Of a stretch of 64,000 nucleotides of DNA, positions 1,393 to 45,304 are shown one piece after another; positions within the stretch are counted from its first letter, which is position 1; each line of letters opens with the position of its first letter. The translations under genes and the position numbers were made by a program. The stretch comes from Tricharina praecox. Lineage: Eukaryota. A model generated the notes under the pieces. The model saw nothing but the letters and a program-made list of their open reading frames with translations, ran no database searches and was not told the origin of the DNA. The stretch covers positions 744,001 to 808,000 of the forward strand of contig NW_026250418.1 of the NCBI RefSeq assembly GCF_024521635.1. The letters run 5' to 3'.

Positions 1393-2791
1393 TCAATCCT
1401 TCTCTGAAGATGGTGTCGTTGGCACCGTCTCCGCCTCCTTCTCCTTCTCCTTGTCAACCTTCTTGACCTCCCTCTTCTTCTTGCCAAAGTACAAAGTCTT
1501 AAGCCGCCGTAGTTTCTGTAGCTTGCTGTTATCCTCGGCGTCCCGTTCTTCATTGGTCAGTTCGTGAGAGTGGGTGGAGGCAACCGAGGCTACACTATAG
1601 ACACTCGCCGCTCCGGAAACTCCTCTTGATGGTTGTTTGAGGACACGCAGCATCGTGCACCATCCGGGCTCTTTACCTTGTGAAGCGGCGTTGACCCACG
1701 GACAATACTTCGCCCATTAGCTTCCCTTCCGGCCAAGCAATGCTCGAGGACTTACATCACGATGTTCCCCGACCAAGTCCAACCTGCAGACACTCGCCTC
1801 GTCCTCCTCCGTGCCATTCTCCGCGGTCTTCTTTCTAAAAAGCCACAGCCCAAGGCGTCGGAAGCATGCCGAGCACGACACCAGACTTGGAATCCCCGGA
1901 TCGTCGTTCCTCCAACCAAACAGCGCTAGCATCGCTGCAGTCTCGAAAATTGGGCCCTCTTCCATGCATTCCGAGGGATAATGTAGCGCCGCCGGTTCGA
2001 CATCCTCGGGGTATGAGATAGACGGCGGAATCTCATTCCTGATCTTGACCAACGTAGTATACCTCGCCGCAAACGCCGGTCGCGCAATCGACGCTTTCGA
2101 GAGGTTCAACCTATAAATAGTATCTGCGACCGATCAGCACCGCGCTCTCCCATAATCGAATCCCGCTATCAAACCTACCATCACACCCCTTCCTCCTCCA
2201 TAAACAGCTCTCATCATGCTCCTCGACCACCATAGCGCCGTAGCGATCCACCAGCGCCCGGCCATCTTCAGTTTGCTCATCGTCGAGCTCGACGGCGACC
2301 AGCAGTTCCGCACGGCAGGTATTACATCTCACGCGGTTCTTATCGAAGCAGACCCATCCGCGGCGGGCCCACGCCACCTCATTCACCACCGTCGGTTTCG
2401 CACTCCACTTATCGACGAAGCGGTATGATTTCAGGCGGTCCAGGAATGCGTCGCGGTCCCACGGCGCGTACGTCCCATGCGCTTTGCTGTCTGTTGTGGT
2501 CGTGAGAACGGTCGAGCGTGTGGAGCGCACGGAGCCCGAGGGTGAGACTGCGCGGATACTGAATTTCGTGGGCGAGGTGATTTCGGCTTCGTCGACGCGC
2601 CGCTTTTTGGGGTCCACTGGGATGCGAGAGGATGTCCGTACAGTGAGCGTTGAGGAGGGAGTGGGCGAGATTGGTTCGGAGGTGGTATTGGCTGCCACCG
2701 CTGTTGCGGTAGTAGTGGTGGTCACGGTCGGCGCCGGCTTCGGCGCGGCATTCATGAGCTTGTCCCATTTTCGTTTGGTCGAGAATAGCAT
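1393..2791 (-). CDS. C3HC zinc-finger protein, Rsm1/Pml39/NIPA family
   Basis: YAPWDRDAFLDRLKSY, WARRGWVC..VRCNTC, EHDESCLWRRKGC, LALFGW, LVSCSACFRRLGLWLF and HRD|YCPWVN motifs; two introns join ORFs 2111-3118, 1717-2109 and 1393-1653; ATG at 2791. Confidence 0.88.
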
Positions 2792-3175
2792 TATGATGTC
2801 GGGAACGAAGAGGTTGTAAAAATTACGGAGAAGAGTAACGCAGGGCTGAAGACGATATAGCAGGAGGCGCCGGGAGAAGGGGCTGAGCTGCGTGTGTTGG
2901 CTGCGGAATGGTGTGTTGACATTTCCGTGTGTCTCAAGCGAAGAACGAACTTCTTTTGGTTTCCCATTGTTGTTGTGGTGGCTGTGATGTCGGATAGATA
3001 AGGGTGATTGATTGATAAGATGGATTAGATAGAAAGTTTCATCTGATAGCGGGTCCTTGTCTGCAGAAGAATCCCCCGCCATAAACAACCCCGCCATTGT
3101 GCCAATTCCATAGCCCAATCACCCACCATACGTCTACTCCGTCTTCTCCGCCGGTTTCCTAGCTTCGCCAGATCA

Positions 3176-4334
3176 ATGTCATTCTACGCCCACGAACGCC
3201 GAATCGCCGAGCTGGCATGCCGGCGCGCATCTCTTCTCACCGACAGTGTCTACCACTCGCAGGTTAAGGGCACCGTCACCAAGGAGGACAAATCTCCCGT
3301 AACCAGTCTGTGAGCCCAATGTACGGCTAGCCTTACCGCATTCCTTACTAACCACTCGCAGTCGCGGACTTTGGCGCACAATCCATCGTAATTGGCGCCG
3401 TCCTGCACGCCTTCCCCAACGATGTCGTAGTCGGCGAAGAAGACGCCGACGTGCTACGACAAGACTCGCATACCCGTGACCTCGTCTGGAATCTTGCGCG
3501 GAAAGCGGTCGAGGACAGCACGGAGCTCTCGGGCGACATCGGCAGTATCAAGGATGCTGAGGAGATGATGTCGCTGATTGACCGCGGCAACAGCATGGGA
3601 GGGAACAAGGGCCGTTTGTGACCCTCTTCCCCAGACCAGAGCGGGGGTGAATACTGATACCTAGATGGGCTGCAGGCATCTGGGCGCTGGATCCTATAGA
3701 CGGGACCAAGGGCTTCCTCCGCGGTGACCAGTACGCCGTGTGTCTGGCACTAATGGTGGATGGGGAGGTAGTAACCGGGGCGCTGGCGTGTCCCAACCTT
3801 CTCGTGGACCCGTCCAACCCCTCGGGCCCCCGGGGCGTCCTCTTCTCCGTCACCAAGGGCGAGGGCTCAACGATGAAGCCCCTCTCCTCACCGCTCTCCG
3901 CCGAGGGTGTACCCGTGCACATGAACGCGCTCACAGACATCACCGCCGCCAGCACGTGCGAGGGCGTCGAGGCGGGGCACTCGTCGCACAGCCAGCAGGC
4001 GAACATAGTTGCGGCGCTCGGGATCACGAAACCCAGCGTGCGAATGGATTCGCAGGCGAAGTATGGCAGCATCGCGCGCGGCGATGGCGATGTCTACCTG
4101 CGCCTGCCCACCTCGAAGACGTATCAGGAGAAGATCTGGGATCATGCCGTGGGCAAGCTGCTGGTTGAGGAGGCCGGCGGAATTGTCACGGATGCGTACG
4201 GCAAGCCACTGGATTTCTCGATTGGACGCACGCTGTCGGCGAATAAAGGGGTTGTTGCCGCGCCGAAGGGGTTGCATGCCGTTGTGATCAAGGCGGTGAG
4301 GGGGGAGTTGGAGAAGGCTGAGGCGGCGTTGTAA
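3176..4334 (+). CDS. MET22: 3'(2'),5'-bisphosphate nucleotidase (PAP phosphatase, HAL2/MET22)
   Basis: TKEDKSPVT|IADFGAQ, VVGEEDA, R|IWALDPIDGTKGFLRGDQYAVCLAL, SVRMDSQAKYGSIARGDGDVYLRLP, YQEKIWDHA; introns 3306-3361 and 3614-3675. Confidence 0.95.
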
Positions 4335-4696
4335 TCGAATGACTAGGTGTGTATGTACATATCTACCTATTCATGACGAGAGGATAAGTATCCAATACTA
4401 TCCAGACAAGGAAAGCTTCCGGTCGTCTTGCAAGGAGGAAATCGCGACATCATGAAGGCTAGATACTCATGCTAGATCACTCGAGGTTTGAGTGACACCC
4501 CGCGACATCGCGTAAAAATACCCGGGCTTGCCCCTCGCTTACCAGCTTAACCGAAGACAACCTTAAACCAGGCTCACACATTCACGATTCACAATTCACG
4601 AAGAAGATTCCATCTGTAGAAGACAAGTCACAAGTTCCATTGCTCCTAATCCCTAGCTACAGTCAAGTACAGACAGGCAGGCAGAGAAACCCCATT

Positions 4697-5795
4697 TTAC
4701 TTCAGCGGGTGCGAATTAGCGTACTCGTCGCTGGCAGTCACGAGCTCCTCCTCCTTGTGCAGGTCAAACACATCGTAGCCCCACTCGATGGGGTCGTTGT
4801 ACCGCTGGTTCTTGTCGAGACTGTCCAGCTTCTTCTTTGCCTCTTCTGAGAGCACGATTGCTATTCTTCCGTCAGTATTTGAAGTAGAGGTAATGGGGAT
4901 GGAAATCGTACGCTTGAAGTTGCTGGCGATTCTGTCGGCGTGTACACTCTTCGGCACAACACTTGTCCCCCTAGCCACAGCCCACGCAATCAACACCTGC
5001 GCCACACTCGTGCCCGCCTCCTCGGCGATAGCCTTGATAGCCGGATCGTCCAGGACTCTAGCCTTGCCGTAGATGTTGTTTCCCAGCGGCGAGTAGGCAG
5101 TAACATGAATACCCTTCTCCTTGAGGTACGCCATAAGCTCGTGCTGCTGCAGCCAGGGATGAGCCTCGATCTGGTTGACGGCAGGCGTGACCTTCGCGGT
5201 CTGCAGCAGCTCCTCGATGCGCCTCTTATTAAAGTTACTGATCCCAATAGCCTTGACCTTGCCCGTCGCCAGGAGGTCCTCCATGGCCTTCCACGTCTCA
5301 GCGATGGGGATATCGGCCAGCGCGATCTTGCCCGTGGCGTCCTGCGGGAACCGGTTCGCGCCCGACGCGAAGTTCACCGGCCAGTGGATCAGGTACAGGT
5401 CTAGGTAGGACGTGCCGAGGTTCTTGAGCGACTCCTCGAGCGCCAGCGGAACGTCCGCTGCTAGTCGGCTGTTGTTCCATAGCTTGCTCGTGAGGAATAT
5501 CTCCTCCCGCGGAACGCCGGAGTCTTTGATTCCGGCGCCGACTTCGGCTTCGTTCTCGTAGATGGCGGCGGCGTCGCTGGTGGGGTGTCAGTTTGTGCTT
5601 GTTTATGGCTGGTGGAAATGGGGGAGAGGGGGGGAGGGGGGAGGAGGGGCAATACATGTGGCGGTATCCAGCCAGCAGAGCGGCCTTGACGGCCTCCCGG
5701 ACCTCTCCGGGAGCACTGAGCCAGGTGCCGAGTCCCACGGCGGGGATCTTCGCACCGGTGTTGAGGGTGATGGAGGCGGAGTAAGTCGAAGCCAT
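4697..5795 (-). CDS. NADPH-dependent aldo-keto reductase (Gcy1/Ypr1-like)
   Basis: [72 protein letters not shown]; two introns; TATA-like TATATAAAG near 5873-5883 on the minus strand. Confidence 0.95.
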
Positions 5796-6846
5796 TGCTA
5801 ACTATGCGGTATTGTGTTTCTGTTCGCTGAACTGTAGAATAGAATATGAATCCATCTCCGCTCGATGGGGCACTTTATATATAGCGATGGATGGCGGGGC
5901 GAGGGGTTGCAAGTTGCAACTTAGGCTTGCCTGCCCCGCGCCGCAGGCTGCAAGTCTGTTTAGCCGGTGCGGTGCTCGCTCGGTGTAAGTGCCACCGGCA
6001 CTACTGCGTGTCGGAGCAATATGCGACGGGGATAGGTAGGAACCTTGTGCGAGCACGGCGCGGAAAAACGTGCGGCCGGCTGCGGGCCGGGCCAGAGATC
6101 AGCGAGAACCTTGGTTGTCGCTTTGTCGCTGCTGCGGTCTTCGGCGTCTCCGTTTGTACATATGTGTCTGTACAAGACGGGGATCAGTGCTCCGCCCTTG
6201 CGATGAGGCACTTCCGTGGGGTATGTTCTTGGATCGCGGTTCTGAATGGGAATATCTGCAACATTGTTCCGGTGTGGTGTGGGAGCTCGGGAGTGCCGCA
6301 GAGGCCGTCCTGCTTGGCGAGTGGATCAGAAACCTCTGGGAATTGGAACATCTTCCAGCGTTTCCAGCCACTTGGCGATGAGTTGCTGCAGAATTTTTCC
6401 GATGGACACCGGGCGGTAGGAATACCCAGGGCGTGGGTGAAGATCGTCCTGCATGGGATGCTCCGAAAGTGCAAATATCACTCACCACTGGCCAGTGGGG
6501 ATCTATGCCGTCACTGCCCATTAGGACACGATTGCCACGGCTAAGTACGGATAAACCAAAGTACGTAGCAGCAGGACGACACAAGTTGGATTGATACCGG
6601 TATGAGCACGCCAAACGGCATTTCAGAATTCCATTCACCAGCAACAACCAAGTTACGCGAACCAATTGACACGTATGTAATCGTAAACCCATTCATTTCA
6701 CCAAACCAGTAATCCTGTACAAAACCCCAGAAATCTAGAAGCAAACCACACGCAACCACACGCATCCACAGAATCCAATCCGATACCAATACAAATCTCC
6801 GGAACAACACAAAACAAAACAAAAAAAACAGACCCAAACACTGCAC

Positions 6847-9800
6847 TTAGTACACCTCCAAAACGTACCTGCCATCCTCCTTCAGCTGCTCCATAGCGTG
6901 TCCAACATCGACCTTCTGTCCCTTGGCCACAGCGTGCTCTTTGATCGCCTCCTCCAGGACGGCGGCAACATCAGGAACGGGCCAGGTAGGACCACACAGG
7001 TAGAAGCTACCCTCCTGCTCGAGGTACGCCTCACGGATCTCGACCAGGTTTTGCCGCATGCGATCCTGGATGTAGATCTTCTCCTTCTGGTCACGTGAGA
7101 ACGCGCAGCCCAGGAGGGTGACAACACCAGCGTCGACGTACGCCTCCCACTCCTCTCCGTACAGGTACTCCTGGCTCTTGTGGCGCGAACCCATGTACAG
7201 CAGGGCGGGGCCGATCTCGAGACCCTGCTCCTGCTGCCAGGCACGGTGCTGGACGAAGGCGCGGAAGGGCGCAAGACCAGTTCCCAGTCCGGCCATGATC
7301 AGGGGTGCGGTCGACTGTGTGGGGAGCTTCATCACCGAGGGCTTGACGGAGACGACAATCTCGGCGCCGATAGAAAGGCGGGAGAGGAAGCGGGTGGCGT
7401 GTCCCCAACGGTCGCGGCCGCGGGGGTCGGTCCAGTTCACGGCAACGATCAGGAGGTGGACGGCGTTGGGGTGGGCCTTCTGCGAGGAGGCGATAGAGTA
7501 TTCGCGGCGCTTGAGGGGTGCAACGATCTTAACGAGGTCGGGGAACGCGGGGTGTGCGGAGGGGTGGTCGAGGAGGAGGTCGGCGAAGGTGACGAAGTCC
7601 ACTTCGGCGTTGCGCTTGAAGTCGGCGGCGCCCTCGGGGGCGGCGACAGCAAGGAGAGCCTTCTTCTCGTCGGCATCGGTGGCGAACTCAGCGAGAGCTT
7701 CGTAGAACTTCTTCGGAGGCTTACCGAAGATGTCTACGTTCTGCTGCAGCGCCTGGAACACGGTGCGGACCTCAAGGATCTCAGGGTCGTCACGGGAAGG
7801 AACCTCAACCAGGTCGTCAGCGTTGAGACCGTAGGCCGCGATGAACTCGTTGACGTCGCCGGTGTCGTTTTGGGAATGGATTCCGAGAGCCTCTCCGATA
7901 TCGTAGGTGAGACCGGTTCCAGTGAGGTCGAACTCAATGTGGAAGATGTTGCGGTCGTACGAGGCGGGAGTGAGACGCTTGTTCTCTTGGACCTTGACGA
8001 TGAAGTTGTTGACGCCGAGGTCGGGGCGGAGGGAGGACTTGACGCTGTAGGCCTCCTTGAAGGAGAGTGCCTGGGCGGCAGACTGAGTTGACTTGAGAAT
8101 CGATGGGGGCTCCTCATAGTGCTTCTCATCGTTGACGGTGAAGGAGTTGGCCTTGGGGATGGTTGCGAGGACAGCAACCTCACCTTCGGCGACAAAGTCG
8201 GCCCACTCCTTAGCGACCTCGACCTTAATCAGAGCTTTCTCGACGGCAGCAGCAGCGGCGTGAACAGCCTCCGAATCCTGGTTGAAGGTGGAGAGCTTTA
8301 TGAGGGAGGCATGGATGCCCGCGGCCTTCAAGAAGGCGAGCTGCACCAACGCATTCTCGACGGCAGGAGAGACGGACTCGCCGGCAGCCTCAACATCGAG
8401 GAGAAGCAGGTTAATGTTCTTCTTGACGATCTGCTTGCGGAAAGGTGCCGGGAGCTTCTTCTCGATGTCCTCGGTCTTGATGGTAGCCTTGACGATGACA
8501 GTTCCTCCAATCTTGGTGGTGGCCGCGACATCGTAACTCTTCAGGAGCTGGAGGTCACCGACAAACGAGAGATCAGCACCCTCGACGTGGAAAGGCGCGT
8601 CAACAGCCTTGTTGCTGATGCGGATCTCGCTCTGTAATGTGCCGGCGATGGCAAAGTTGTCGTACACCGCTGAGTAGGAAACAGAGCTGTTTCCGCCGGC
8701 AAGGACCTTGGCGACGACGGCCGCCGCGGGGGCTGATGACGCGTCGTCACCGTTCCAGAAAGTGTACTGGCGAGCGGTGGAGTCCTCTGCCAAAGTCACG
8801 AACGAGTCCAGGGTGGTGGCCTCGGCGGTCAAAGCATCCTCGGGAATAGCGATCGAGACGGTGGGCTTGCGCGCAATCTGGTCGAAGATCCAGGCGAACT
8901 CCTTTGGCGACCAGGTGTGCTCGCGGGCGTACTTGACGTCGACGATCGGGGGAGCAAGGTTCCATACATCGGACATGGTGATGGCGGCAACGACATCGGT
9001 GAAGAGTGCTGAGCTCACGGTGGTATCGTTGACTGCAAGCTCGTTGAGGACTTGGCCCAAGACGGCGACACGCTTGACGCTCTTGGGGAGCACCTCGAGG
9101 AACGCGGTCTCGCAGAAGGGCCTGTAAACACGGACAGCAATCACACCAACCTTCTCACCGCCCTTGGCCAGAGAAGCCGCGATCTGGGTGGCCAGGGAAG
9201 ACTCGACGGATCCGAAAACAACCAAAACCGCATCCGGCTCCTCGTGTCCCTCGTACTCGAAGAAGCTGTAGGCGGTTCCAAGCTCCGCATTGAGACTGCG
9301 GAGGATCTTGTTCATCCTGGTGGCCTGGTCCTTCTTGCCGTCCTGCTTCTCGCCAGAGATGGACTCGAACACACCCTGGAGTCCGGTCTGGTCGAGAACG
9401 TCCACAACCTTGGTGGTCTCCCGGGCAACCCTGACACCGTCGTAAATGTGGACGGTAGGAAGCACAGTTGCGGCCAAAGTCGCGAACAGGGCCATGTGCT
9501 GCGCCTCGTAGGGGGAGAAGCTCGAGATCAATCCCGCGCCGGTCTCCTGGGCAACAGTGACAGCGGTAACGTAGTCGGAAACCAGCTTTCCGGAAGAGAC
9601 CTCGTAGTCGACGGCGGCTACGTGCGCCACAAACGGCGAGGACATGGAATAGATCAGCGCAAGCTGGTCGATGGCCGAGCGCATCGAGGTCAGGGTCGCG
9701 CTCGACGCAATGATGCTCTGCGCAACCTCCTTCTTCGCCGTAGTGTCCGAGCCGAAGATGTAACCCAAGAGCACATTGGCAGCGCCTAACCGGGTCTCCA

Positions 9801-15494: not shown

Positions 15495-16584
15495 TCACAC
15501 AGGACTCTGTTCGACCTTGCACTTCTCGCCGCTACTCGATCCTCCCGTGGTAAGATGCAACTGCCCGAAATCCTCCGTCTCCGTCTCCCCCTCCTCCTCC
15601 TCGGGTGGACCTCCCTGCATCCCCGGCTCAACGATCGGATCCTCATCACGGTACCACTTATACACCAGGGAGATGAAATCAAACACCGGGCCGAGCAGGG
15701 TCGCAATGGCGAGCATCTGGCCAAAGGTCCAATCGGCCTCCCCGGCGGTGACCTTCGACTTGGACTTCGTGATAATGCTCTCGATCCAGACGACAAAGTA
15801 CGCCCAGAACGCAAAGATGAGGAGCATGAGCGCCCTATCGATGCCAGTCTTGAACGCCTGCCGCTTCTCCCACAAATTCTTTGTGCATTTAGCGCGGGGG
15901 AAGGCGACGTATAGGAGCGTGAGCACGCTGAACACCATGAGCGTGATCGTGACGCCCATGAGCCCGCCGCGATCGATCCCGCGGCCGTTATACTGCGCGG
16001 TGGCTGCCCAGACCTCGGCATTGCACGCGCCGCCGAACGTATCCGCGTTCAGCACGAAGTAGAGCATCCACCCTTCGCAGGCGAGGCTCGCGATGACATA
16101 CAGGGCCATCGTGGCGCGCTCGCTCGGGTTGCGCAGACAGCCGAAGAAGAACGGGACGAAGATCAGGAGGATGTAGAACATGAGGCAGATTGCGTGGAAC
16201 AGCGAGAGCTGCTGCAGCCCGGACTGCACGATCGCTGTCATCACCATCGTTATCCCCGATATTCCCAGCGTGTTGCGGAATGAGTCGTGCAAAGCTTTGT
16301 AGTCGTCTCGCAAACGGTTCTTGCCGATCAGCCGCTTGAACAGCCGTGTGCGCATCCATGTCTGAAGCTGCTCGTCGCCGAGCATGTCGAGGAGGATCGC
16401 GAAAAGTGTCATCACGTATACTGAGATTCGAACCTATTCACCAAAACAGTACATCATCAGCATTTTTTTATTTCCTCTCTCTCTCTCTCTCTCTCTCTGC
16501 AAAGAAGGGGAGAAGGAAGGAACAAACCCCGATACCGGACACGTCCGGATTGCTGGTAATAACGCAAGGCTGTGTCGTCGACAT
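15495..16584 (-). CDS. Uncharacterised fungal multi-pass membrane protein (NPDxxGIGVR..WTFGQ type)
   Basis: Exon 1 16584-16528 (MSTTQPCVITSNPDVSGIG), intron 16434-16527, then VRISVYVMTL..; several hydrophobic segments and a WTFGQMLAIATLLGP motif; acidic C-terminal tail. Confidence 0.8.
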
Positions 16585-18259
16585 TTCGAATATGTATATA
16601 GGATATTGGATGTGGATTTCTTTCGCTCGGTCGAACTGGCGGCCTTTGTGTGATAATATACCCCTCCAGTGTCTCGCTCGCGTGTATGTCGTGGTGCGCT
16701 GGTTGGCTGGCAGCCAGGCCGGCTCCGCGTCAACAAAACCTCGCATTGGTCCGTTGGTTGACATGCAGCCCACTACCGTACTCTAGTTGTCTAACTAACC
16801 AGAGACAATTTTTGGTGGCTGGTACTCCTCATCTACATACTCTACGCGATTCTGATATGATAACTATCGCGGTGTGCGGGGCAAGAGAAATCTTCCAGCT
16901 GAAGGGTCTCGGATGAACGCCAGCTTTGGGAAGGCACGCCGTGATGGGGTCTCAGATCTGCATATAATTCGCTGTGCTTCTGAGATACTGTACACACCTA
17001 CATGGAGATACAGATGCCGATACGTTGGATTAAGGCTGTCGTTTGGACGTGCAGGGTGGGTAGGTGGGTAGGTGGGTGGCGATCGCATGATCGGCTCAAG
17101 GCAAGAGGGTGAGTGGACGACGACGAATCGACGCAGACATCCAAATTTCATCCGGCTTGTGTTATGGGGAGAGGGAGAGGGAGAGGTCGGCCCTGTGTGG
17201 GCGTCCCGGAGTCCGCCGATACGATACGGAACGCATGACGGCTGCTTTTCGCCGATCATGTGTTGTCACTCTGATCTTCAGTCCGAGCTCAAAGTGGTGT
17301 CGAAGAACTCTCGCGATTGGTGTAGGTATTTCTCCTTGGTACCAGGTGAGCTCTAGTTAGAGTACATCGTGCCGGTGCCCAGGCGGAGGGCGGGTGAAGT
17401 AGGTCATAGCTTGCTGCATCGAGCCAGTCATCTAGACTGTAGACAGGATGCCGTACGGAACCGGGACAGTGCGCTTCGCAATGGTCCCGATAGGCTCACG
17501 CGAATACCGGTAATGAAGAAGCGGCAAAAAGAACTTCCCGCGATCAAAATTTATTCTCACATAGCAGCCAAGTTCGCAGAAGAGCTCTCATTTTCAATAT
17601 GGAGATCAGGAGAAAGAGAAACGCTAGGTAGAGCCACTACACAGGCGAGATCCACCACTTTGGTGGAAACAGCCTTGATGACAGGGTTTACCTCTGCATT
17701 GGGGATTCCTGAAACCGGATCATGCTTATTTGCTGGCGCTGGCGCTTGCTCGTACACACAAAGACAACAGCCACACACTCAACATGCCGCCACACCCGTA
17801 GTGCTCTAGAGGTTATCCGAGCCGAGTCGGTGACGTAGAATGCTCGCACGCAGACAGCTGTCGTCCTAACTGCGTCCCGAGTTCTCTGCAAAGCGTCATC
17901 GAGCTCATCGAGCTCAACAAGCCCCGACGCAGAAGACAGGTACACATTGAAGTAATTATTTTCTTACCCAGGGGACTTTCTTAATCTCCATGTAAAAGAG
18001 GCAAGTCGCAACAGATTCGAAACCGTTCATTCTATGTATATCGGGACGAGCATGAGCTAGGTTATTACATGTTGGCATCCATCGTGGCTTAGATGTGGCC
18101 GCTGACGACGCCTCGTTATGACCTTGGCCGACATGAACAAGCAAGCAAGATATATTTCCATCCAGCTTCCCTCCCTCCATCTCCACCCCGTCACATACAC
18201 ACACTTTACACCACAACCGCACTCCACCACCACCTCCTAATAACCACACGAACGAAACC

Positions 18260-18499
18260 ATGTGCACCCCTTCCAGCACCGCCGCCTCGACCGCGCTCGT
18301 CAACCACAACGGAGAGAAGACACCGCTCACGGGCGCCACGAGCGTACTCGTTGGAAAGCCGCCGACGGCGGGCTGCTGGTGCGGCGACGATTGCAGCTGC
18401 TGCGTGTAACTACTCCCTCTCCGCACTCCTTCCATTCAACTCGAAGACATGTGCTGACTGCGACTTGCGCGCTGTAGGATTCCTTGTACCATCATGTAG
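18260..18499 (+). CDS. 55-aa cysteine-rich microprotein ending in a CaaX box (CTIM)
   Basis: ATG in ACCATG context at 18260; exon 1 18260-18405; 72-nt intron 18406-18477 (GTAACT..GCTGAC..TAG); exon 2 18478-18499. Product MCTPSSTAASTALVNHNGEKTPLTGATSVLVGKPPTAGCWCGDDCSCCVIPCTIM*. TATA-like GATATATT lies about 110 nt upstream, followed by a C/A-rich leader. Confidence 0.72.
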
Positions 18500-19595
18500 C
18501 CGCGAATCGGAAGATTGGCTGAGGATGGAGGATGGTGAATCGGATGATTTGTCTTGTGATTTCTGGCCGGAGTTTTGTCATTTGATTTACTGTACAATGA
18601 ATGGAGCAAGCGAGGTTTCTGTCTGTTTGATGCGATCCGGTGACGGTGTGAAATATGATGCGCGTTGTGCTCTGTGGACTACACATGGAATTCCTCTAGA
18701 AACGGGACGTGAACTTTCGCTGTAGACACCACATCCGTGACGGAAGTTGGACCCGCCCGTGATGATGATGCATATGGTTGGAGCAGCGATTCGCGCTGGC
18801 TCGCTATGTGGCGCTACTTCTGGCGGCGGTGAGGGGCCGTCCGCCTCGGTCGCACGGGACCGAATCGACAGGTGAACATCTCTAAAGCTTCCTCATTGAC
18901 ACTTCTGTTTCCTGCAGCTGCCGTGTCCGGCCCGCCTTGTCCGCCCCATACGCCACAGCGCCACACCAGTGATGACGCCACAGTGACGCCTCTCCAATTA
19001 CTTTCCGGCCTTCGCTCTCCAGGGTTAGCCAGCCTGCGGCCTGCGGCGGTCGAAGCTCGCGCACGGGAGCTCCGAGCTCCATCCTCGTGACGGATCTGAG
19101 TCCGCACGAAGACACCAGTAGTGTAGAATAGCTACCATAGAAGAACCCGTGAATGCCCTCCAGAGTCCACACGCTTGTTTTTCAAAGCCCATACTGCACT
19201 TTGCCCGTCGGCAGTTGTGTGTAAAGCCTGTCCTCCGTTCCACCCCTCACGCCTCTTGATCTCTCCTGCCAAGGGATACTACATCCGTTACTCTACACGT
19301 CATCCATCCATCTCAACCCACGTTTCGGTGCGTCCAGAGAGTGCATGCAAGCAGAAAGAAGCGGCAGACTGACTGACACAGACAGAACCCACGACCAGCC
19401 CTCCCTCTTTCCTTCTGTCGGCCACTTCGTTTCCCATTTCCAACAGAGTCCATCGCGAGCGACGCCGACCGACCGACCGACCGACTGACCGATCTCCTTG
19501 TACCCCTTCAACTCGCGCACTCGTTCGAAAGACCTCCTCACACGCGCGTCGGCTACCCCAACCACCTCCAGCTGCTGTACGGGCGATCTCCCGCG

Positions 19596-22500
19596 ATGTC
19601 GCCGAAGCGCCCCCCAGCGCGCTTTCGGAATCCGTTCTTTTCGATATCATCATCACTACTACTGCTGTTCTGCTTTGCGCTCGCGATAACGAGTGTCGCT
19701 GCGACGAAGCCGCCCGAAAACGACGATGGTTCGGTTACAAAGACTCACAAGGCGGGATACTGCGCAATGCGGGGACAGGTACGGACAATCTCCACCGCAA
19801 ACAACGAACTACAGCGACAATCACGTGTGCGAGCAGTTCAGCTAACTATTTGTTTCGTTTGCACTTGCAGGAGAAGAAATCCTTCTTTGGAGGACAGCTC
19901 CCGGTCTCGTACAACGGTCCTGCGGAGCCGCCGACGGCAGCGGTGAGGCAACAGCTGGTGGATCTGTGTGGAGCCAAGTGGAGCGAAGGAAACGTCTGTT
20001 GTGACGGCGATCAGGTAACGTTTCACGCCCATAGGTGATTTTGCGACACCGATCGACTGACCAATCTCACCACAGATTTCGAACCTCGGGTCGAACCTCA
20101 GGCGTGCCGAAGCTCTGATCGCCTCTTGCCCCGCCTGCAAGGTCAACTTCTTCGATCTGTTCTGCACGTTCACCTGCTCGCCCGACCAGTCGCTGTTCTT
20201 GAACATCACGGAAACGGATACCGCGAGCTCCGGGAAGAAGCTGGTGTCGGAGATCGACTACTTCGTCTCGCCGACGTTTGGCGAGGGCTTTTACGACTCG
20301 TGCAAGGACCTCAAGTTCTCGGCGACCAATGGCAACGTGATGGATCTGATTGGCGGCGGCGCAAAGAACTGGGGCGACTTCCTCAAGTTTTTGGGAAAGA
20401 AGAATCCGCCTTTTGGATCACCGTTTCAGATCAACTTCCCGCCGAAGAATGAGACTGGTAGGGACATGAAGGTCATGCATAATGTTCCGAAGAAGTGCAA
20501 CGATGAGGATGTTGCCTACCGCTGCGCCTGCATGGACTGTCCCGCCGTCTGTCCCATCCTACCAGATGTCGACGAGATCAAGGTGTGCAAGGTTGGCGCG
20601 CTTCCGTGCTGGAGCTTCGCGGTTATCATCATCTACTGTGTCGGCTTGATGCTCCTTGGAGTCTACTTGGCCTTCACTGAGGGTGTCCGGTACCGCAACA
20701 GGAGGAGAGAAAACCAGAGGCTGTTGCGAGATTCGGATCCCGAGCTCAGCGATGACGACGATGAAGGCGGAGTGTCTGGTGCCGGCTTGTCGCCGGAACG
20801 CTACCGCAGGAGATATGCCCTTGATGTGTACCTGGAGTCGATATTCTCGCGCATTGGAGGCTGCAGCGCGAAATTCCCTGCCGCGACCATCGGCATCTCG
20901 ATCCTCATTGTCGGTTTGCTCAGCTTGGGCTGGCTCAACTTTAGCGTGGAGACGGACCCAGTGCGTCTCTGGGTAAGCCCGAGCTCGGATGCCGCGAAGG
21001 AGAAACAGTTTTTTGACGACAATTTTGGACCGTTTTTCCGAACGCAACAAGCGTTCTTGATCAACGATACGACGGAGGCTGGATCTTCGCCTGTTCTGAG
21101 TTATGAGACTCTAGGCTGGTGGTTCGATGTGGAGCAGAGAGTGCGGCGGCTCAAGAGTCTGGAGCATGGCGTCACCCTGGAGGATGTCTGTCTCAATCCG
21201 ACCGGCGAGGCGTGCGTCGTCCAGAGTGTTACGGCGTACTTCCACGGCAACTTTTGGGAGCTGAAGCAGAGTACCTGGAAGGAGCAGATTCGCATGTGCG
21301 CGGAACAGCCCGGCCAGTGTCTTCCCGACTTCGGCCAGCCGGTGAAGAAGCAGCTCGTTTTTGGCGGTTATGAGAAGAGCGGCGATGTGGTCGACTCCGC
21401 CGCGTTGATGACTACGTGGGTGCTGGGAAATCATGCGGAAGGCAGTGAGGCTGTCATACGCAGCATGGATTGGGAGCAGAGCTTGAAGAATACGCTTCTT
21501 GCCGTCAAGGAGGAGGCCAGAGAGCGCGGATTGAGGCTGAGCTTTTCGACCGAGATCAGCTTGGAGGAGGAGCTCAATAAGAGCACCAACACCGACGCCA
21601 AGATTGTCGTCATCAGCTACATCGCCATGTTCTTCTACGCCAGTATCGCGCTCGGGAGCACGACGTTGGCACTAAAGAACATGCTGCGCCAGCCGGCGAA
21701 GACATTCGTCGACAGCAAGTTCACGCTCGGTGTGTTTGGCATCATCATCGTGCTGATGAGTGTTTCGGCGTCCGTTGGTCTCTTCTCGGCGATGGGCGTC
21801 AAGGTCACTCTGATCATTGCCGAAGTCATTCCGTTCTTGGTGTTGGCTGTCGGTGTCGATAACATATTTCTGATCGTGCACGAGTTCGAGAGGGCTGATG
21901 CCGAGCATCCTGATGACGAGATCGAGGAAAATATCCGGCGCGCCATGGGACGGATGGGTCCCAGCATCCTGCTCTCTGCAACTTGTGAGACTTTGGCGTT
22001 CGCCCTGGGTGCTGTCGTCACTATGCCGGCGGTCCGGAACTTTGCCATCTACGCTGCGGGAGCGGTTTTCATCAATGCGATCCTGCAGATCACCATGTTC
22101 GTTTCCGTTCTCGCTTTGAACAAGAAGAGGGTGGACTCCAACAGGATCGACTGTTTCCCTTGCTTGAAGGCACCCAACTACGACGCAAATTGCGAGGAAC
22201 ACGAGGGAGGCCTCGTCGGTGAGGTTGAAGAAGGTCTCATTCAGAAGGTTATCCGCAAGAACTATGCCCCTGCTCTCCTCCAGAAACATACCAAGGTTGC
22301 GGTCGTCGCCGTGTTTTTTGGAATTTTCGCTGCGGCTTTGGCACTCCTTCCTTCGGTGGAGCTTGGACTCGACCAGAGAATCGCGATTCCCCGCGGATCA
22401 TACCTCATCGAGTACTTTGATGATCTGTACGATTACTTTGCGGTCGGCCCTCCAGTGTACTTTGTGACCAAGGAGTTTAACGTCACGGATCGCGAAATAC

Positions 22501-23801
22501 AGCAAGAACTTTGTGGCAGGTTTTCGACTTGCAGCTCGTTGTCGCTGTCCAATATCATCGAGCAGGAACGCAAGCGGCCAGAGGTCTCGTACATCTCTGA
22601 GCCTGCCGCAAGCTGGATCGACGACTTCATGCTCTGGCTCAACCCTTCGCTCGAGGGATGCTGCCGCGTCAAGAAGGATGATGGCAGCGAGTTGTGTGGT
22701 CCCTACGACTTTCAGTGCAAAGTGTGCTTTGAGGACAGAAATCCAGGCTGGAACATCACACTCGATGGGATGCCGCAAGGACAAGAGTTCATGGACTACC
22801 TCAAGATGTGGGTCGATGCACCGACCGGCGAAGAATGCCCTCTTGCCGGTAAAGCGGCCTACTCGACTGCTATAGTCCCCGACTACGAAAAGACCACCAT
22901 CTCCGCGAGTCACTTCAGAACGTCGCATAAGCCGCTCACCAGCCAGGCTGATTTCATCGCCGCCTACGCTGCCGCCCGCCGGATCGCAAAGGAAGTCTCG
23001 CGAACCGCAGGAACCGAGATCTTCCCGTACTCCAAGTTCTACATCTTCTTCGACCAGTACTCGACCATTGTCCGGCTCACAGCGGGCCTCATTATTGCGG
23101 CTCTCACGGTAATCTTTGTGGTCTCGGCAACGCTGCTGGGGAGCATCAAAACCGGCGCCGTGGTCACCGCAACCGTTGGCATGATTGTCGTGGATATCAT
23201 GGGTGTCATGGCTCTGTGGGGCATCAGCCTCAACGCTGTCTCGCTAGTCAACCTCGTTATCTGCGTTGGCATCGGTGTCGAGTTCTGCGCTCACATCGCG
23301 CGCGCATTCATGTTCCCCGCCGCATCGGTGGTGGAACGCGCAAGAGTCAAGTTCCGCGGTAGAGACGCAAGAGCGTGGAGTGCGCTCGTGAACGTCGGCG
23401 GCTCGGTATGCTCCCCCCGCATTCCATCATCCATTCTCATGGCTAACCAATAACCATAGGTCTTCTCGGGCATCACAATCACCAAGCTGATCGGCGTCAG
23501 CGTCCTCGCGTTCACGCGCAGCAAGATCTTTGAAGTATACTACTTCCGCATCTGGCTTGCGCTCGTTGTCGTCGCTGCAACGCACGCGCTCATTTTCCTG
23601 CCCGTGGCCCTGAGCTACTGCGGTGGCGAGGGCTGGCTCCCTGTCGATGGCGAGGGCGGCCTTGAGAGCGATCTCCTGTATCGTCGCCTCCCGCCCGGCG
23701 TCGAGGAGGAGTTCTTTAGCTCCGATGAGGAGGAGGAGGAGGTTAGGGCTGGAAGGACACAGGCGGTGGCGAAGAATAATGGACAGGGAAACGGGCGATA
23801 A
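19596..23801 (+). CDS. NCR1: Niemann-Pick C1-like sterol transporter
   Basis: [55 protein letters not shown], sterol-sensing domain [62 protein letters not shown]; three introns. Confidence 0.96.
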
Positions 23802-42295: not shown

Positions 42296-43708
42296 TCACC
42301 GCTTACCCCAAACAACCCCAAGGGCATCCACCTCGCTCCCTGTCCATCCCTGAAAGCCCACCAGTGTCCAGGTTCCTCCCGAAGGCGGAGTCCACACCTC
42401 GCACTCGCCCGTCCCACTGCCGGTCCTGACACTTCGCCCTCGATCGGTATCCACGGTGACCGAGAACACACCTCGCGACCCACCACTCCTGACACCGATG
42501 CAGACCTCGACACGGTTGATATTCTCCCCAGCGTCCAGCTTCAACGTCCGATCCCCGCCGCCGCTCCCTCCGTGCGGGATCTTCCTTCCGTCCGACATCG
42601 TGTACGCCACCTTATCCACCCGGCTCCCGCCGCGGAGAGTAATCGAGCTCACCACCGCCCTCGCCGTAGCATCCCCCCACGAGCCCACACTCCCACCCGT
42701 CGCATCGTTGAACCACGTACTATGCGTCCCGCCAACGATCCTTGGCCCCGCCCTCATCGACGGCGAAAGCTCGTAATCAAACACCGCCTGATTCGGAAAG
42801 TGATCGCTGAGCGGGCCACCGCTCGCCGTCAGGAACGCCGTATTCTGGTTGATGAAGTCCGTTGCTGCCAGCCTCAGGAGGCGGTTCCCGCGGTAGTGGA
42901 CCTTATCGATCTGCTCGCAATCCATCCTCTCCTGCCCGGCGGGCACCGGGAAGCGACACTCGATGCTGCCGCCATGGCCGGGCGGATTCCCGCCGCGGAA
43001 CAGCTCGACCCACACATCCGCTAGCCCGTTCTTCTCCTTCAGCAATCTCGCCGGGTCCTGAGACGATGTGTACCGCGTATTCGTATCCCCCGCGACAACA
43101 ACCGCGTTGCCGAGCGAATACGTGCCGATGAAGTTACTCATCTGTTGGAACCCCACGGTCCGCGCCTGGAAATCGAGCTTGTCGTCGCCTGCCTCCGCAT
43201 GCAGGTTGTAGAAGTCCACTACGACGCCGTCGTCGAGTTGGATTCGCATCGCCGTGAAGCCTTTGGCTGCCAGGCAGTCGCCGCTGTTGGGCCAGCAGGC
43301 GGCCCACGTGCGCCGTTGGTGGTCGGACCATGGGTACGAGGATAGGGCGTTGAGACCGTTGCCGAGCGGGACATTACCGCTGTGGGATGTCCGGTAGAAG
43401 TGTGTATCGGATGATAGCAGCTCGGAGTGGTAGCCGAAGTCTTCCTGGACGTGGACGATGGAGTAGTTACTCAGACGTTGCGAGATGAGGGGGGTGTTGA
43501 CTGCAGGGTCGCTGCCGGAGATGGGTTCTGGCGAAATCAGCATTGGAACCATGGGGACAGAATAAAATGTGGCTTGTTTGTACATACCGGGCAGTCCAGC
43601 GACGTTGTAGGTCAGTATATCGAACGATCCGCTGAGTGCCTGGCCACTCGCCCAACCGCTCATGGCTCCCGCCGCCAAAATCGTACATATCGTTCGTATC
43701 GAAAACAT
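42296..43708 (-). CDS. Secreted endonuclease/exonuclease/phosphatase (EEP) protein with C-terminal jacalin-like lectin domain
   Basis: Signal peptide; ILTYNVAGLP, VHVQEDFGYH, KGF, YNLHAEAG, VVAGDTNTRY, IDKVHYRG, LSDH; C-terminal ITLRGGSRVD..HGGSGG..LVGFQGWTGSEVDALG; one in-frame intron after GLP. Confidence 0.88.
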   Translation of the reverse strand: MFSIRTICTILAAGAMSGWASGQALSGSFDILTYNVAGLPGMYKQATFYSVPMVPMLISPEPISGSDPAVNTPLISQRLSNYSIVHVQEDFGYHSELLSSDTHFYRTSHSGNVPLGNGLNALSSYPWSDHQRRTWAACWPNSGDCLAAKGFTAMRIQLDDGVVVDFYNLHAEAGDDKLDFQARTVGFQQMSNFIGTYSLGNAVVVAGDTNTRYTSSQDPARLLKEKNGLADVWVELFRGGNPPGHGGSIECRFPVPAGQERMDCEQIDKVHYRGNRLLRLAATDFINQNTAFLTASGGPLSDHFPNQAVFDYELSPSMRAGPRIVGGTHSTWFNDATGGSVGSWGDATARAVVSSITLRGGSRVDKVAYTMSDGRKIPHGGSGGGDRTLKLDAGENINRVEVCIGVRSGGSRGVFSVTVDTDRGRSVRTGSGTGECEVWTPPSGGTWTLVGFQGWTGSEVDALGVVWGKR

Positions 43709-45304
43709 CTTCGCTGTAACTAAGTGTCTTCACTTTTTCTCCTCGCCGTTTCACCGCTGGGGGAGGATACACTTTATACCCCCATAGTCGAGATTAAATC
43801 TTCGCCTGGCCCCGCCATGTGCCCAATCCGAATCCGTGGCCATGGGATCGCTACCCCTCAATTATTACAGTTACAGAGTTGCAGTTACAGCGTAGCAGAA
43901 TGAGGTACATACCCGCAATCACTCGCGCGCTGGGAACGGACGCCCTATGACCATCCCTGTCGCGCGCTGATTGGCTCGCCACAGCATTCAGGACGGGGGC
44001 TCTAATAGAGTAAATTTCTTCCGACGAGTTGAGTCGCTACTCTTCTGCTCGAGGGGCAGAAAGGAGGAGGAGGAGGCGAAGGGGTTCAGTAGTGCCTACG
44101 CTGCGTAGGTAGGCGGGAGAGATCGCGTAGGGTGGGTGGGTGGGAGATTGGCTCTTTCGAGCAGAACATCACGTAGCGGGGGTTTGAGTTTGTAGATAAA
44201 CTGTACTTGGACCTAGGTGAGGATTGCCGTTGGAAGGACTGGGTGACGAGAGGACTGGCCTCTAGGTATGATACGGGGCTCGAATACTTCGATGCTCGAT
44301 GTACATTCCTAGTTCGGTGTTGTGTCTGGAGTACGATAGGTGCGCATGACGAAGTCATCCCCAGCTTTCACGGTCCACACTGCCACTCCTGACGACTTCC
44401 GAGTCCCGACACGGCAGGCGTCAGGGACGACCATATTCCAGCAGCCGAGACACCGGTATGTGAAGAAGTATCACAAGTTACAAGCGTCCTGCATATCTGT
44501 GGCCCGGATGATGAGCTCTTCGCGTGAGACCGTGGCGTGGCCTTGACTGTGGGCGTGGGAGTGGGTTAGGTTTTGTGCGGGGCATCAACGTCGTGTCGCA
44601 CAAACCCGCCACTACCACGAGCCACGAACCACGGGTCACGGTAGGATTTTGTCGGCAGGAGTGGAGGGGAAGAGACGGGTTAATGCGAGGTAGGAGATGA
44701 GCTGCTGGACCTTTTTTATTTTCTTTCTGGCACGGCTGAGATGAGTAAGTAGGCCACTCACGTATGGTACACAACCACCCTGGCCGCTGTATGTAGTAAA
44801 AAGGGCCCCGTGTGAGTCGGTAGCACAGCATGTCGCAATAGGCCATATTGAGGAGGATCAGAGACCATCGCGACCGACACGGTGACGAGCAGCAGCTGCG
44901 AGAAATGGGCAAATGTGAGTACCGCCATATTGGTCTGCCGGAGTCCCCCGCAGAGGCCCTTATATGTCCGGAATGCGACGACTTGCAGCCTAATATTGTC
45001 TCCCCTCCCCGATTAGCTCGGGTGCATCCATCTGCAGCGCTCGAAACGAGTGAGGCGGCGTGCATACGCTGTCACATTCGATTCACGCCCCGTCTCTGTC
45101 GTCACCACCACCATCAAAACGGCGCTACCTACCACCTCGAACCCAGCCAGCAAATCTTGCCGTCTCAATCCCTTACTTCTCCCCTCACCTCCTATACCGC
45201 TCGTTCTCCTCGTATCTCGGGACTCGCACATCCGCCTTGCATTTCGTCTTAGCTCATTATTCTTCGACTCGCTCCTCCACCGCTGATCGCCCGATCGCCG
45301 TACA

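Follow-up and report, generated by a model that had tools for sequence, protein, structure and literature searches.

A spliced cysteine-rich CaaX microprotein of Tricharina praecox, and whether it is a mating pheromone

Does a short spliced gene of Tricharina praecox, whose product joins a cluster of cysteines to a C-terminal CaaX box, encode a mating pheromone, a metal-binding peptide or something else? The gene lies in a stretch of 64,000 nucleotides (contig NW_026250418.1, positions 744,001 to 808,000), called the window below. No a-type pheromone of Pezizomycetes, the class of truffles, morels and Pyronema, is reported in the P. confluens genome study, as far as the available part of that source shows (PMC3778014), and the only published candidate from Leotiomycetes is a putative one; a matching gene can now be named in a lab-grown Pezizomycete, PCON_09686. 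Either outcome, the missing pheromone or a separate and deeply conserved lipopeptide, corrects or completes the literature. The window protein is probably not a mating-type pheromone; an everyday membrane-bound peptide is the more likely reading than a mating signal.

Gene structure, transcription and neighbourhood

The gene encodes 55 amino acids, with cysteines at positions 2, 39, 41, 45, 47, 48 and 52 and the C-terminus CTIM (Table 1). The unspliced reading frame terminates after V49, so the CaaX box depends on splicing, just as the earlier note had claimed. Parts of the stretch occur in seven public runs; four were examined, two of them RNA on record and two guessed to be RNA. The splice joint 18405/18478 is present in all four, which come from three studies. 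Removal of the 72-nt intron in vivo is thereby established by the very RNA-seq check that had been proposed for it. No contig in the four runs covers the intron, and contigs show presence only, so that a small retained-intron fraction would escape them.

Table 1. Coordinates of the microprotein gene, its promoter elements and its downstream neighbour in the window
Feature	Position	Strand	Remarks
12-nt upstream element with TGACG	18101..18112	+	identical in L001, L002 and both L003/L004 copies
TATA-like element ATATATTT	18150-18157	+	conserved in 4/4 aligned promoters
Exon 1 CDS	18260..18405 (146 nt)	+	MCT start, Ser/Thr-rich leader, LVNHNG motif (18296-18313), start of Cys tail
Five-cysteine cluster C39-W-C41-G-D-D-C45-x-C47-C48	18374..18405	+	opens the conserved 17-residue tail
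Intron	18406..18477 (72 nt, GT-AG)	+	phase 2, within codon 49; GTAACT donor, TAG acceptor
Branch site GCTGAC	18453-18458	+	inside the 72-nt intron
Exon 2 CDS	18478..18499 (22 nt)	+	CaaX box CTIM at 18485-18496, then stop
3' UTR	18500..18625	+	probable end near 18625; contigs of runs X1 and X2 (two studies)
NCR1/NPC1 sterol transporter gene	19596..23453, runs on past ORF	+	Pfam NPC1_N, NPC1_MLD, Sterol-sensing; neighbour, synteny marker

Deep RNA contigs start at 18211-18214 (runs X1 and X3), and one X2 contig starts at 18112. That the X1 and X2 contigs both stop at the same downstream position is a weak hint that the transcript ends there. Contig depth over the gene is 1634-7446 in X1 and X2, a poor gauge of expression level. 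One further X1 contig (depth 241) spans the promoter, covering 17900-18242 (+) and beginning before 17900; it represents either upstream transcription or DNA in the library.

The TATA-like element and the good ATG context noticed earlier are both conserved in relatives. The TGACG of the 12-nt upstream element is a putative CRE/ATF-like half site. When both strands of the 64 kb were searched for one-intron CaaX reading frames (ATG start, one intron, 20-100 aa, common donor, branch site, CaaX end), with no shuffled control, the microprotein gene itself was the one match. Its core motif likewise occurs once within the window.

The gene had been described as isolated. Instead, it sits 1.1 kb upstream of NCR1/NPC1, and this linkage is conserved in relatives. 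The best named relatives of the NCR1 product are those of Sphaerosporella (82%), Trichophaea (80%) and Pyronema (78%), i.e. Pyronemataceae (Pezizomycetes). Among the 17 other long ORFs scanned in the window, none is a mating-type, pheromone-receptor or pheromone-processing gene. An ORF for a 305-aa multi-pass membrane protein (15495-16412, minus strand) lies upstream of the microprotein gene; it has no Pfam match above threshold and is 79-82% identical in a relative. Farther away, at 42296-43729 (minus strand), an ORF fuses an endonuclease/exonuclease/phosphatase domain with a jacalin-like lectin domain.

Homologues and conservation of the tail

A phmmer search with exon 1 gave three matches, one of them Pyronema omphalodes CCX10093.1 (P0123), a protein of 45 aa ending in CVIM, whose tail is identical by eye to the window tail at 16 of 17 positions. 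A scan of metagenomes confirmed 8 of 274 pattern matches (L001-L008). Seven are true homologues; L008, which has no Cys tail, was dropped. L002-L004 share one sequence and were counted as one organism, and P0121 is a read-through of L001. Both L001 and L002-L004 retain the intron position and the exon-2 residues, and in L003/L004 the gene again lies upstream of NCR1.

Exon 2 of L001 and of the first L003 copy encodes the same residues as in the window, the stop codon being TAA vs TAG in the window. Over tail codons 39-55, compared by eye, L001 differs by three synonymous changes and the first L003 copy by four, with no replacement in either; leader indels between the window gene and its relatives are in frame. 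Such changes, together with conservation at the protein level across classes, make it hardly credible that the spliced transcript is non-coding and its ORF incidental.

L003/L004 carry two tandem copies of the microprotein gene. In the second copy C41 has become Ser and exon 2 is altered, having gained a Cys, while the product still ends in CTIM. L001 and both tandem copies use an AAG splice acceptor. At 3490-14310 of L004, and also in L003, the microprotein gene and the gene for the 305-aa membrane protein are both duplicated, the latter as an inverted pair.

Intron retention had been suggested as a possible switch. Unspliced read-throughs of the relatives end differently (59 and 67 codons) and L005-L007 are microprotein homologues without the intron, so that such a switch is not conserved; nor does any contig keep the intron, and the idea finds no support. 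In P0122, P0124 and P0128 the predicted read-through diverges directly after G-D-D, which, judged from the proteins, suggests an intron at a different position in another Pezizomycete lineage.

We take the names Pyronema omphalodes and P. confluens to stand for one strain. From the lengths and the scaffold (genes to 35,540 vs 35,582 bp), we infer that CCX10093.1 is PCON_09686. This gene adjoins NCR1 (PCON_09687) directly upstream on the same strand, has a CDS of 138 nt split into 116 + 22 nt, and is annotated only as 'protein of unknown function' in the part of the genome study available to us (Traeger et al. 2013, PMC3778014). Judged from the annotated lengths, its intron phase and its 22-nt last coding exon match those of the window gene; the protein differs from the window protein in its length of 45 aa and its shorter leader.

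A profile built from eight sequences was searched against 402 word-filtered candidates. It returned seven proteins: P0123, two further Pezizomycete-like read-throughs, three proteins of Dothideomycetes (Cercospora, P0127; Pseudocercospora; Myriangium, P0129, with an E value of 0.38) and PROFUN_15513 (PRP78427.1, P0125) of the amoebozoan Planoprotostelium fungivorum (E 7e-7). No Leotiomycete protein was returned from these candidates. Over the last 17 residues (C39-M55), identity to the window protein, counted by eye, is 13/17 in Cercospora and 12/17 in the amoeba. The nine tail positions of C-W-C-G-D-D-C-x-C-C are invariant in 10/10 aligned sequences, and all seven complete ones end in C-x-x-[ML] with Pro before the Cys, which bears out the expectation that homologues keep the CaaX box. 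Leader length ranges from about 23 to 46 residues. Evidently, selection fixes the last 17 residues, whereas both the length and the sequence of the Ser/Thr-rich leader have drifted. The earlier idea of a prenylated membrane peptide can be counted as likely.

P0125 deserves a closer look. It comprises 85 aa with a ubiquitin-like domain (Pfam E 1e-4, below cut-off) in place of the Ser/Thr leader. It shares with the window protein all six tail cysteines, W-C-G-D-D and the Pro before the CaaX Cys, but its CaaX box ends in Leu, presumably the geranylgeranyl type. In the alignment its residues 67-68 correspond to ubiquitin G75-G76, directly followed by C69, the first residue of the conserved tail. 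Ubiquitin fusions are cut by deubiquitinases directly after Gly-Gly. The intact Gly-Gly before C69 suggests that this tail may be cut free, and the position of the tail directly behind it is independent evidence that a module starts at C39. We regard the architecture as reminiscent of membrane-anchored ubiquitin-fold proteins (MUB/UBL3), which to our knowledge lack Gly-Gly. Only one predicted protein, encoded on a contig of 17.5 kb, represents P0125. It might be mis-annotated or be a contaminant that stems from fungal prey; inheritance, transfer and contamination are possible alternatives for its origin. An AlphaFold2 model of it is of low confidence (pLDDT 49, tail <50).

Other searches added little. 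A word search with exon 1 alone gave no candidate, and no PDB relative of the family profile was found. The Atlas returned nothing usable for exon 1; all leads for P0123 were <0.9, the top one being a 56-aa Ascomycota cluster (0.82), and an 85-aa virus cluster reached 0.78. In viral contigs, 0 of 22 pattern matches were confirmed and two strict patterns gave none. A loose viral pattern gave 69 stretches, of which five were translated (four from giant-virus contigs and one fitting a CaaX-stop pattern) and proved to be the reverse strand of Gln/Pro-rich genes, the other 64 being screened by the CaaX-stop pattern only. Two pattern matches in prokaryote genomes were both discarded: each overlaps other ORFs in a frame that is not used and is bounded by stop codons.

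The pheromone reading

By filtering for small CAAX proteins, Wilson et al. 2023 (PMC10569646) arrived at the BCIN_13g03330 family, which they put forward as a putative a-factor. Its homologues occur in at least 111 Leotiomycetes, are 45-64 aa long with a Ser/Thr-rich leader and mostly end in CTVM; 87 of the at least 111 members contain Gly-Tyr, the trait that links the family to Sordariomycete a-factors. The size filter of that family (at most 100 aa, terminal CAAX or CPAX) admits the window protein with its 55 aa and CTIM. By eye, the entries of S10 File share with it the MCT start, the Ser/Thr-rich leader and the motif LVN[RH]NG, the exact LVNHNG being found in two of them (PMC10569646). Both have five cysteines before I-P-C-x-x-M, with shifted spacing: the cluster reads C-W-C-G-D-D-C-x-C-C in the window protein vs C-x-x-C-D-G-x-x-C-C-C in the Leotiomycetes. 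Four Leotiomycete entries with a short CCC-IP-C form align gaplessly by eye to the window tail, and Myriangium P0129 bridges the two tail types, its W-C-G-D-D cluster being joined to a longer CCC-IPIP-C end. The window protein differs in having no Gly-Tyr (it has no Tyr at all) and in a mid-leader unrelated to that of the Leotiomycete family. Cys2 (18263-18265), right after the start Met, is common to most Leotiomycete look-alikes and not to the Dothideomycete homologues; speculatively, it could serve as an extra acylation or N-degron site.

By eye, the window gene thus looks like a Pezizomycete member of this family. It would then be a real gene in an already described putative family, and what is new would be the range, which takes in Pezizomycetes, Dothideomycetes and an amoebozoan ubiquitin fusion, together with a mature peptide predicted to start at C39 and findings that make the pheromone label less secure. 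In the open-access literature we found no paper linking a Pezizomycete, Dothideomycete or amoebozoan gene to the family and nothing on ubiquitin-CaaX fusions; among the family gene ids sought there, BCIN_13g03330 alone appears (Wilson et al. 2023). The literature on a-factors of Pezizales and Dothideomycetes, including the available parts of PMC13037118 and PMC11787670, gave nothing on the microprotein family.

Expression data exist for both groups. In P. confluens, PCON_09686 has counts of 1937/1902 in DD, 1497/1637 in sexual and 2033/2517 in vegetative samples; the ratios are 0.70 (sex/veg) and 0.82 (sex/DD), and the gene is not differential (Traeger et al. 2013, PMC3778014). The receptor gene Ste3 (PCON_08875) has counts of 15/14, 400/531 and 10/7 in DD, sexual and vegetative samples, respectively, and both Ste3 and Ste2 rise about 50-fold in sexual development (PMC3778014). 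Expression at the sexual stage, which the earlier note had wanted checked, is therefore not raised in this species. The flat profile is not decisive, since most P. confluens mating and pheromone genes other than the receptors are likewise weakly or not regulated (PMC3778014), and the comparison is weakened by the homothallic host and the pooled time points. In B. cinerea, transcripts of the look-alike occur in MAT1-1 and throughout the four data sets, at RPKM 46-198 and not according to mating type, and Wilson et al. themselves doubt its mating role; the M. fructicola copy shows no expression (PMC10569646).

Could the gene nevertheless encode the true a-factor of Pezizomycetes, Leotiomycetes and Dothideomycetes, a constitutive ligand of Ste3 with control exerted at the receptor? 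Several facts speak for it. The traits by which Wilson et al. chose their candidates fit the protein: it is <100 aa long, has a CaaX box and a Ser/Thr-rich leader and lacks a signal peptide, reading of its sequence having revealed no hydrophobic leader. According to the available part of the genome study, P. confluens possesses Ste2, Ste3 and the processing enzymes and no precursor was found (PMC3778014); being homothallic, it is not expected to express one by mating type. In one relative, moreover, a second copy whose tail is altered stands in tandem with the first. Processing and evolution speak against it. Srikant et al. (10.1101/2021.09.28.462209) filtered for an Axl1 site, Asn 5-20 residues before the CaaX Cys, and the window protein, with Asn only at N15 and N17 and none within 5-20 residues of C52, fails this yeast-derived rule. 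The Gly-Tyr motif that ties the Leotiomycete family to Sordariomycete a-factors is missing, and PCON_09686 is not induced in sexual development. The tail is near-identical across classes and in an amoeba, unlike yeast mature pheromones, which have no detectable homology beyond the Saccharomyces-Kluyveromyces split (10.1101/2021.09.28.462209). Finally, the ppgB of Aspergillus fumigatus, as citing papers report it, looks different. We consider this explanation quite unlikely. Of the pheromone proposal it stands that the gene is a fair precursor candidate and that a look-alike family bears the name; the flat expression, the lacking Asn site and the near-fixed tail tell against the role itself.

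Membrane anchor, released peptide or metal ligand

The reading we prefer, tentatively and at somewhat less than an even chance, is a constitutively made, lipid-anchored Cys microprotein of the membrane. From its sequence, the protein would be made in the cytosol without a signal peptide. C47 and C48, four and five residues upstream of C52, stand at the palmitoylation position of Ras-type tails and are probably palmitoylated. By analogy with CaaX biochemistry, C52 would be farnesylated, TIM trimmed off and the new end carboxyl-methylated (in part after 10.1101/2021.09.28.462209). In the weakest steps of the model, the protein would stay on the cytosolic face of a membrane, present C39-x-C41-G-D-D-C45 as a thiol/carboxylate site acting as metal or redox ligand or as docking site, and have a role in housekeeping or stress physiology. 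The splice joint in 4/4 runs, the synonymous-only change of the tail and the flat profile of PCON_09686 vs that of Ste3 argue for the anchor model. So may P0125, in which this tail is joined to an unrelated folded domain, much as one would expect of a portable module. The invariant W-C-G-D-D suggests a specific partner, beyond lipid anchoring alone.

The Gly-Gly of P0125, on the other hand, would fit a released peptide better than a fixed tether. The gene may be viewed as encoding the precursor of a lipopeptide of 14 residues, running from C39 to the methyl ester of farnesyl-C52, that is released and exported without being a mating-type pheromone. We hold this to be unlikely, if still a serious competitor, and give the same rating to its supposed function as a species-unspecific signal or surface/adhesion factor, produced by a-factor-like processing in fungi and from a ubiquitin fusion in the amoeba. 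The amoebal tail begins exactly where a deubiquitinase would cut, conservation in fungi likewise starts sharply at C39, and 14 residues fall within the 5-20 of mature a-type peptides (10.1101/2021.09.28.462209); non-mating roles of a-factor in Neurospora are cited by Wilson et al. (PMC10569646). However, the residues before C39 vary (AG, KP, VP, LP, QP, SG, NG), so no cleavage motif is shared among the fungi, P0125 is a lone and possibly spurious prediction, and five free cysteines, an odd number, would be awkward outside the cell. A bolder version, to which we give slightly less credence, sees in the prenylated five-Cys 14-mer an old class of free-standing lipopeptides. Three or more fungal classes would cut it from a Ser/Thr-rich leader, and a fungus-eating amoeba from a ubiquitin fusion; the amoeba would either have inherited the peptide or have acquired it so as to imitate or sense a signal of fungi. 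If true, fungi would possess a widespread lipopeptide messenger apart from mating pheromones, and the Leotiomycete 'a-factor' would be a misnamed member.

The metallothionein-like motif emphasized in the earlier note does not amount to family membership. Metallothioneins are generally high in Cys and free of aromatic residues; the window protein, with 7/55 Cys (13%) and an invariant Trp40, departs from both. Neither exon 1 nor any of the ten members of the family alignment matches a metallothionein Pfam profile, and none of them contains an HMA domain match. A membrane-tethered, metal-induced detoxifying peptide of metallothionein type is thus very unlikely. The spacing C-x-C-G-x-x-C-x-C-C does resemble metallothionein motifs, five Cys and two Asp stand within ten residues, and the pairing of a metal site with CaaX is known from HIPPs. 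Besides the lacking Pfam and PDB matches and the residue composition, the C-x-x-C spacing of the Leotiomycete look-alikes and a high expression without known metal stress contradict it, as does, in a weak test with an animal-type motif, the absence of a TGCRCNC element between 16355 and 18262.

Further known systems can be set beside the window protein. S. cerevisiae Mfa1 and Sordariomycete a-pheromones resemble it, as far as our sources describe them, in being short cytosolic CaaX precursors in which the leader varies and the C-terminal peptide is conserved. Unlike them, the window protein has five extra cysteines and no Asn-X site near its tail, its P. confluens counterpart is not induced in sexual development, and its conservation reaches far deeper. 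Metallothioneins, plant HIPPs and the small palmitoylated CYSTM/CYSPD proteins are, like it, small and Cys-clustered; it has no Pfam match to any of these families, and CYSTM proteins are not known to carry a CaaX box. The closest analogy for how the window protein may work comes from HIPPs and CYSTM proteins, which have a lipid anchor and are linked to tolerance of metals or stress.
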